From assembly GCF_003334315.1 (NCBI RefSeq), contig NZ_QOWR01000092.1: a DNA stretch of 7,507 nt; one strand, given 5' to 3'. Positions 5,852-6,223 of the stretch are shown here, piece by piece. The position numbers and the translations under genes were made by a program. This DNA comes from Escherichia coli (GTDB taxonomy: Bacteria > Pseudomonadota > Gammaproteobacteria > Enterobacterales > Enterobacteriaceae). The notes under the pieces were generated by a model that was given only the letters and a program-made list of their open reading frames with translations, made no database searches and was not told where the DNA came from. Within the stretch, counting starts at the first letter, position 1, and each line of letters starts with the position of its first letter.

Positions 5852-6052
5852 TCACCAGCTACACAGTATATACACACTGACGCTGACAGTAGTCAGCAGG
5901 ACCACAATAATCAGTGCCAGCAGTATGGTAACGATACGGTCTGTATTCCGGTAATAGCCGAAGGGGTCGACAGAACCACAATACGGGCAACACACTGTAT
6001 TATGAGTAATCGCGTTTCCACAGTCCCTGCACTTCTTTTTGCGTATCACCAT
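5852..6052 (-). CDS. Small zinc-ribbon protein with C-terminal transmembrane helix, 66 aa
   Basis: Strong SD (GAGGAGGGAG) 5 nt upstream of ATG at 6052. N-terminal CxxC...CCxxC (CRDCGNAITHNTVCCPYCG) followed by a 23-residue hydrophobic segment (IVTILLALIIVVLLTTVSVSVYI). Function unknown. Confidence 0.6.
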   Translation of the reverse strand: MVIRKKKCRDCGNAITHNTVCCPYCGSVDPFGYYRNTDRIVTILLALIIVVLLTTVSVSVYILCSW

Positions 6053-6223
6053 CACTCCCTCCTCACAGCCTTACCCGTAACCGGTTTTTTACATTAAAAA
6101 AACAACGCTGAAAATTCAACCGTCAGTCCGGAGACGACCGTTCGGGTTATCACAGAGTGCCTGAGACAGTGTCCTGCCGGAGGTCACTTCAGGGACTCTG
6201 CGCATTTTTTACGACGTGGCTAT

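Follow-up and report, generated by a model that had tools for sequence, protein, structure and literature searches.

The window analysed here is a 7,507-nucleotide stretch of Escherichia coli DNA (contig NZ_QOWR01000092.1 of assembly GCF_003334315.1) that matches many E. coli chromosomes at 100% identity and forms the left part of the backbone of a CP4-like (P4-type) genomic island. From left to right it carries an IS66-family element (tnpA, tnpB and tnpC; 552..2864, plus strand), upstream of a gene for a 205-aa hypothetical protein (3823..4440, minus), followed by a gene for an AlpA-type excisionase/regulator (4519..4725, minus; PHROG 66, E 7e-9) and a decayed hha/ymoA-family remnant (~5459..5563, plus), which retains 65–69% identity to island Hha proteins and contains an internal stop. 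Then come the small gene of interest (5852..6052, minus), a gene for a 189-aa protein of the YagK/YfjJ (‘inovirus Gp2’) family (6252..6821, plus) and a gene for a DUF7828/Zn_ribbon_11 ‘putative zinc ribbon protein’ (7075..7446, plus). A preliminary description of this DNA, made from the letters alone, had placed the small gene in a mobile element and in divergent orientation to a Rep-like gene. Synteny with CP4-like island backbones bears out the location, and the Gp2-like gene at 6252..6821 bears out the divergence, its product matching PF11726 (1.1e-47) and, weakly, PF23343 REP_ORF2-G2P (4.7e-5). This product is 36–40% identical to K-12 YfjJ and YagK and shares with them an HUH-like HYH motif (HYHLML) and a DYLAK motif (Y-x2-K; DY-L/M-x-K); given the Pfam matches and these two motifs, the label ‘Rep-like’ is fair.

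The small coding sequence runs on the minus strand from an ATG at 6050–6052 to a TGA at 5852–5854 and, translated from this ATG, yields the product MVIRKKKCRDCGNAITHNTVCCPYCGSVDPFGYYRNTDRIVTILLALIIVVLLTTVSVSVYILCSW. The 66-aa length originally given thus stands, as does the coding part of the span assigned to the feature (5852–6110); the end at 6110 lies past the coding sequence, within the probable promoter region. An upstream GTG at 6055, with which the listing of open reading frames extends the product to 67 aa, is an unlikely start because it is too near the Shine-Dalgarno sequence to be used. The latter, GAGGAGGGAG (6064..6056, minus), is retained in divergent copies and is as strong as first described, its AGGAGG core lying 5 nt upstream of the ATG and 8 nt upstream of an alternative GTG start at 6047–6049 that is kept in every copy. 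In two sampled lineages (the equivalents of 6050–6052 in L006 and in L020–L022) the ATG is replaced by ATC, which leaves the GTG at 6049 as the sole start conserved across all copies; the protein may be 65 aa long, initiated at this GTG one codon downstream. The same ORF is annotated by PGAP in strain 510016 as hypothetical protein WP_001297900.1, and at least 1000 contigs carry the identical protein; ABU 83972 is one strain with the exact allele. In 9 of 11 copies its frame, alone among the six, stays open from end to end. The preliminary description had made the standing of the gene depend on conservation in related elements, and the ORF is conserved there. On the basis of PGAP annotation, conservation and selection at the protein level, the small ORF is a real gene and far more than a chance reading frame.

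The N-terminal half of the product contains the motif C8-x2-C11-x10-C22-x2-C25, with a second knuckle of the CPxCG type and an extra C21 beside C22; the CxxC...CCxxC pattern noticed from the sequence corresponds to C8-x2-C11-x9-C21C22-x2-C25. The codons for these residues occupy 5978..6031 (minus), within a predicted cytoplasmic domain of residues 1–39 (5936–6052, minus). C8, C21, C22 and C25 do not vary, 12 of the 13 intact variants retain C11, and an invariant His17 adjoins the Cys-rich site. Ligand spacing and conservation are thus those of a four-Cys, two-knuckle zinc ribbon. Profile and structure searches gave sub-threshold matches of the same kind: zinc-ribbon matches of the small protein in Pfam were weak (best i-E 0.014), NCBIfam returned 16.4 bits against a cut-off of 32, the PDB sequence search gave E values of 0.056 or worse, with a reverse-gyrase zinc finger as the closest zinc motif, and Foldseek against the PDB gave 0.75 or worse, although all of its top matches were four-Cys zinc knuckles. 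Neither curated zinc-ribbon profiles nor solved zinc-ribbon structures were matched significantly, and the assignment follows from the C-x2-C-x10-C-P-x-C-G motif together with these sub-threshold profile and fold matches. AlphaFold2 places short beta-strands in the ribbon at low confidence (mean pLDDT 72). From the motif and its conservation we infer that the ribbon binds one zinc ion.

The C-terminal half consists of a single predicted transmembrane helix at about residues 40–63 (5864..5935, minus), after which 3 residues follow in the window copy and 1–3 across intact variants. The best 19-residue Kyte–Doolittle mean is 2.99 in the window protein and 2.7–3.05 across all intact variants, and AlphaFold2 models a helix at residues 35–65 with pLDDT of about 90. 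The N-terminal 39 residues carry a net charge of +4 (+3 to +5 across variants), and no charged residue occurs past residue 39. Hydropathy, charge distribution and the AlphaFold2 model therefore all agree with the single C-terminal transmembrane helix proposed earlier. These are the attributes of a tail anchor, namely a single C-terminal hydrophobic helix, positive charge on its N-terminal side and a negligible tail. By the positive-inside rule the ribbon is predicted to lie in the cytoplasm, with the protein C-tail-anchored in the inner membrane. We consider it very probable that the product is a tail-anchored inner-membrane protein with a four-Cys zinc-ribbon N-terminus.

The two halves evolve under sharply different regimes. 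Across seven distinct alleles, codons 2–39 show Nei–Gojobori dN/dS of 0.03–0.26 at dS of 0.24–2.2, and strong purifying selection acts on the zinc-ribbon half. Because the low dN/dS is accompanied by many synonymous changes, the ribbon is conserved at the level of protein and not of DNA, and constraint on the DNA is ruled out as the cause of the N-terminal conservation. In the helix half dN/dS is 0.4–2.3, a range obtained with dS near saturation and an uncertain alignment between allelic types, from which no positive selection is claimed. Nucleotide identity to the window copy is 47–65% in this half, as against 75–94% in the N-terminal half, 88–99.5% in the intergenic region and 86–97% in the Gp2 gene. 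Every intact allele nevertheless encodes a helix of equal length, indels being in frame and the protein 64–66 aa long. The helix-half alleles fall into three deep allelic types, A, B and C.

The variable segment extends beyond the gene, forming a hypervariable block (~5613–5937) that comprises the helix-coding half and about 240 bp past the stop, between flanks conserved at 74–99%. Synonymous divergence in the small ORF is ~0.8, about three times the 0.25 of the adjacent Gp2 gene. The block and the threefold synonymous excess suggest old allelic types reshuffled by recombination. Defective copies also occur: of 11 compared in detail, L005 is frameshifted and L007 has a degenerate C-terminus, frameshifted copies are frequent overall, and many frameshift clusters appeared in the protein search. 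The existence of such copies means that the small gene is dispensable.

The small gene belongs to the fixed backbone of CP4-like islands in E. coli and keeps its place from one island to the next. The typical order is GTPase, DUF3987, 200-aa protein, AlpA and Hha, then the small ORF on the opposite strand, about 200 bp of intergenic sequence, the YagK_YfjJ_C (Gp2) gene, one or two DUF7828/Zn_ribbon_11 genes and cargo. This order is the same in most inspected loci, even where alleles are 50–65% identical in the helix half; one exception among them, L019, lacks the DUF7828 genes. Throughout the homologous neighbourhoods, a comparison that the preliminary description had called for, the small ORF stands about 200 bp from, and divergent to, the YagK/YfjJ gene; in strain 510016 the divergent neighbour of WP_001297900.1 is likewise annotated by PGAP as an ‘inovirus Gp2 family protein’. 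The Gp2 gene was found at 6501 places in 3526 genomes, and the two genes co-occur nearly one to one. Counted with the small ORF, the tandem DUF7828/Zn_ribbon_11 genes bring to three the different zinc-ribbon proteins that this module encodes around a single Rep-like gene. At the position of the hha remnant in the window, most other island copies carry Hha as an intact gene that converges with the small ORF.

The 199 bp separating the small gene from the Rep-like gene (6053..6251) form a constrained control region and the most conserved segment of the locus (88–99.5% identity across lineages); its Jukes–Cantor distance of 0.079 is about one third of the median Gp2 dS of 0.25. The A/T runs and palindromes noticed in an intergenic region of 200 bp correspond to T6 and A7 runs and two inverted repeats (6153–6164/6189–6200 and 6224–6231/6235–6242). 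On the minus strand, a candidate sigma-70 promoter for the small gene (6091..6119) comprises a −35 element TTGAAT (6119–6114), a 17-nt spacer and a −10 element TAATGT (6096–6091); it was read by eye, with 8 of 12 consensus matches, which is under the threshold of the scanner. These positions are unchanged in four of five aligned copies, the fifth (L005) having three substitutions in the spacer and −35 element. On the plus strand, a consensus scan gave a candidate promoter for the Rep-like gene (6088..6115; TTTACA, 16 nt, GAAAAT), so that the two candidates overlap back-to-back.

The predicted leader of the Rep-like gene contains two conserved plus-strand hairpins. Hairpin 1 (6153–6200) has 12-bp arms and is followed by a T6 run (6207–6212), an attenuator-like arrangement; hairpin 2 (6224–6242), with a perfect 8-bp stem, would pair with the GGAG Shine-Dalgarno sequence, its outer stem reaching the ATG. 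The fold of the leader (6153–6262) has an MFE z-score of −3.0, and an insertion of 5 nt in the loop, seen in two lineages, does not disrupt the stem. Only one compensatory pair is seen in these hairpins because the sequences hardly vary, and Rfam gave no match. The 199-bp region may serve as a switch or as a binding platform or, possibly, as an origin or nick site used by the HUH protein.

Among 5426 complete E. coli genomes, the small ORF occurs at 6356 places in 3473 (~64%), almost all of them chromosomal, the copy number per genome having a median of 2 and reaching 6 at most. When 1.84 billion representative proteins were searched with a profile, only 25 clusters fell below 1e-10, and each of them was this one enterobacterial gene or a frameshifted product of it; protein searches found the gene in E. 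coli, Shigella, E. albertii, Salmonella and Klebsiella. The range outside Escherichia, Shigella, Salmonella and Klebsiella was judged from protein searches, as species representatives gave nothing usable with either a peptide pattern or an exact 26-nt stretch of the intergenic region. By tblastn, the K-12 elements CP4-57, CP4-6, KpLE2 and CP4-44 lack the small gene, including beside yfjJ and yagK, and no K-12 gene name or data set is therefore applicable. Phage records yielded one 20-residue fragment only, and the gene is nearly absent from plasmids, where the eight ‘plasmid’ records are mostly megabase-size replicons.

At E values of about 1e-4 the profile reaches a further group in the same 1.84 billion proteins, characterized by C-x-DCG-K-x-LS-x-TA-x2-C-x2-C-S-S/T-DPFG-x-K-R-x2-DR followed by a helix. 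These DPFG-type proteins align with the query from residue 1 onward (29% identity across 58 residues without gaps) and resemble it in Cys spacing, in the DPFG...R..DR linker leading into the helix and in carriage by mobile elements. They differ in having a tail of 10–20 residues after the helix and in lacking a Gp2-like neighbour. They are encoded antisense to F-type T4SS genes: between TraG_N and TraH on one contig and between traN and trbC on IncF plasmids (in 121 plasmid records, of which 116 are conjugative, the gene being mostly unannotated), with a further case in one Dot/Icm-like cluster. The DPFG-type proteins of F-type operons are, as judged from this alignment and architecture, probable distant homologues of the window protein. 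Instances of these ORFs, 72–77 aa long and combining a zinc ribbon and a helix, lie antisense within tra operons at 4001–4219 of L026 (the Shigella sonnei IncFIA/FII plasmid NZ_OP038301.1), 6001–6234 of L025 and 5001–5219 of L010. Three other weak look-alikes (P0084, P0110 and P0112) lie on short contigs with uninformative context.

PHROG families 38187, 10292 and 14275 match residues 6–58 (best E 1.5e-5) and likewise place an N-terminal C-x2-C...C-P-x-C-G ribbon directly before one membrane helix, but they are 136–178 aa long with an additional domain past the helix. Knuckles of the Pfam Zn_ribbon_3, DZR and UPF0547 types share the N-terminal ribbon, all matches being below significance. P2 Ogr and P4 Delta are zinc-finger activators, small four-Cys proteins of P4-type elements without a membrane helix; they differ from the window protein in Cys spacing, and no Pfam Ogr_Delta match was obtained.

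Building on the observed gene, domain layout, selection pattern and synteny, we tentatively propose that the product acts as a tail-anchored adaptor tied to the neighbouring Rep-like module, a possibility that we favour without regarding it as probable. In this proposal, about 39 basic N-terminal residues would fold in the cytoplasm round one zinc ion held by C8, C11, C22 and C25, while the helix at about residues 40–63 would be a mere anchor with essentially nothing in the periplasm, leaving the ribbon as the working part. The ribbon would bind a conserved cytoplasmic partner, either nucleic acid or protein, and hold it at the membrane. An adaptor is suggested by the tight constraint on the ribbon and by a helix that is kept only in hydrophobicity and length. 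Because the pairing is fixed and the two genes share a constrained promoter region, the Rep-like module is the likeliest partner or target, whether through the Gp2 protein itself, its DNA substrate or the downstream DUF7828/Zn_ribbon_11 proteins. As an analogy for holding a partner at the membrane, ElaB, YqjD and YgaM of E. coli are C-tail-anchored inner-membrane proteins with a helical cytoplasmic binding domain and one anchor helix; they have no sequence relationship to the window protein.

The link to the Rep-like gene is qualified by several observations. AlpA, Hha and the 200-aa protein likewise co-occur with the small ORF, and the co-occurrence with Gp2 may simply reflect conservation of the whole backbone. 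The K-12 genes yfjJ and yagK have no partner ORF resembling the small gene, and the Rep-like family therefore does not need the small protein; the relatives in F-type T4SS operons, which lack a Gp2-like neighbour, point to an autonomous function. A literature search found no functional study of inovirus Gp2, yfjJ/yagK, DUF7828/Zn_ribbon_11 or the small protein. One study counts Gp2-like proteins as part of the core of Pseudomonas tmRNA islands that carry defence genes (PMC12595487), and for gut-passaged E. coli Nissle a preprint reports a raised copy number of an integrase gene and a Gp2-family gene (10.1101/364505).

A broader formulation, which we regard as doubtful, would make the small gene the founding island branch of an unrecognised ‘ZnR-DPFG-TM’ family common to CP4-like islands and F-type or Dot-type conjugative elements. 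Its members would have an inner-membrane role in mobile elements, for example in coupling HUH ssDNA processing to the membrane or in excluding rival elements, and the 199-bp region would be a two-gene switch composed of overlapping divergent promoters and a hairpin sequestering the ribosome-binding site of the Rep-like gene.

The main rival explanation, which we hold to be rather unlikely, is that the small gene is an autonomous conflict gene whose product blocks the entry or establishment of phage or competing-element DNA or acts as an abortive-infection effector or sensor. Islands of this class carry defence cargo (PMC12595487), abpAB adjoins yfjJ in K-12, and the phage PHROG families share the zinc-ribbon and helix N-terminus. 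The small gene forms a transcription unit of its own, divergent from or antisense to the genes beside it, in islands and, among its weak relatives, in tra operons that have no Gp2 neighbour, and the hypervariable block with its types A, B and C, spanning the helix half and the sequence downstream of the stop, could reflect such conflict. The variable half is, however, also high in synonymous divergence, so that relaxed constraint explains the block as well as an arms race does. Copies of the same helix type often reside together in one genome, the types being distributed as 3467 places in 2850 genomes (A), 2607 in 1840 (C) and 146 in 140 (B). Exclusion specific to helix type, under which copies of one type should not co-reside, was rejected on this ground. 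The gene is frequently pseudogenised, and the small protein lacks a periplasmic segment, whereas most superinfection-exclusion proteins use a periplasmic part. A search of PADLOC-DB v2 left the small protein, Gp2, the 205-aa protein and the DUF7828 protein unmatched at E values up to 0.1. Neither superinfection exclusion nor abortive infection, both put forward in the preliminary description, was confirmed.

The toxin proposed in the same place was likewise not confirmed. A small membrane toxin or addiction factor stabilising the island would suit the small size and hydrophobicity of the protein, the several toxin–antitoxin pairs (cbtA/cbeA and similar) of this island family and the convergent Hha-family gene of most copies. 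The layout is nevertheless unlike that of known type I toxins: strong conservation falls on a soluble ribbon, the helix stands at the C-terminus and the Shine-Dalgarno sequence is of consensus strength. The translation of such toxins is held in check by an antisense RNA or an occluded ribosome-binding site; here Rfam gave no RNA match, and there is no evident antisense RNA and no adjacent antitoxin candidate. The helix sequence also evolves freely, and we consider a toxin improbable. Equally at odds with the strong Shine-Dalgarno sequence, which is conserved together with the Cys ligands, is the notion of a decaying relic or non-functional ORF that owes its conservation to DNA-level constraint on the adjacent regulatory region. 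This account draws on the intergenic region being the most conserved segment, on the commonness of frameshifted copies and on the lack of an assigned family or function; we nonetheless judge it quite improbable, given that the first 39 codons show many synonymous and very few non-synonymous differences and that the helix is kept across ~50% nucleotide divergence with in-frame indels. Least credible, and in our view highly improbable, is an anti-sigma-like or redox/zinc-sensing membrane regulator. The Cys-rich site beside the invariant His17 and the single membrane helix recall ZAS anti-sigma factors, in which a cytoplasmic Cys/His metal site is followed by one membrane helix. The window protein lacks their motif, domain size and sigma partner: H17-x3-C21-C22-x2-C25 differs from the ZAS H-x3-C-x2-C motif, the 39-residue predicted beta-ribbon is too small for a helical anti-sigma domain of ~80 residues, and no sigma factor gene, ECF or other, was present in any inspected locus, which speaks against the anti-sigma-like role suggested at the outset.

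The small protein is already in databases as hypothetical, and its class, small zinc-ribbon membrane proteins, is broad and poorly studied; the interest of this member lies mainly in its prevalence in E. coli islands (~64% of complete genomes, usually in two copies) and in its clean, testable design. The islands that hold it in their backbone carry much of the virulence, fitness and defence cargo of the species, and the two-part design with its clean selection signature offers an easy experimental entry to island replication, movement and competition. The backbone itself is subject to insertion: in strain 510016 an IS66 copy lies between the AlpA-like gene and the small ORF, unlike its position in the window, and these differing positions indicate that IS66 has hit the backbone repeatedly.
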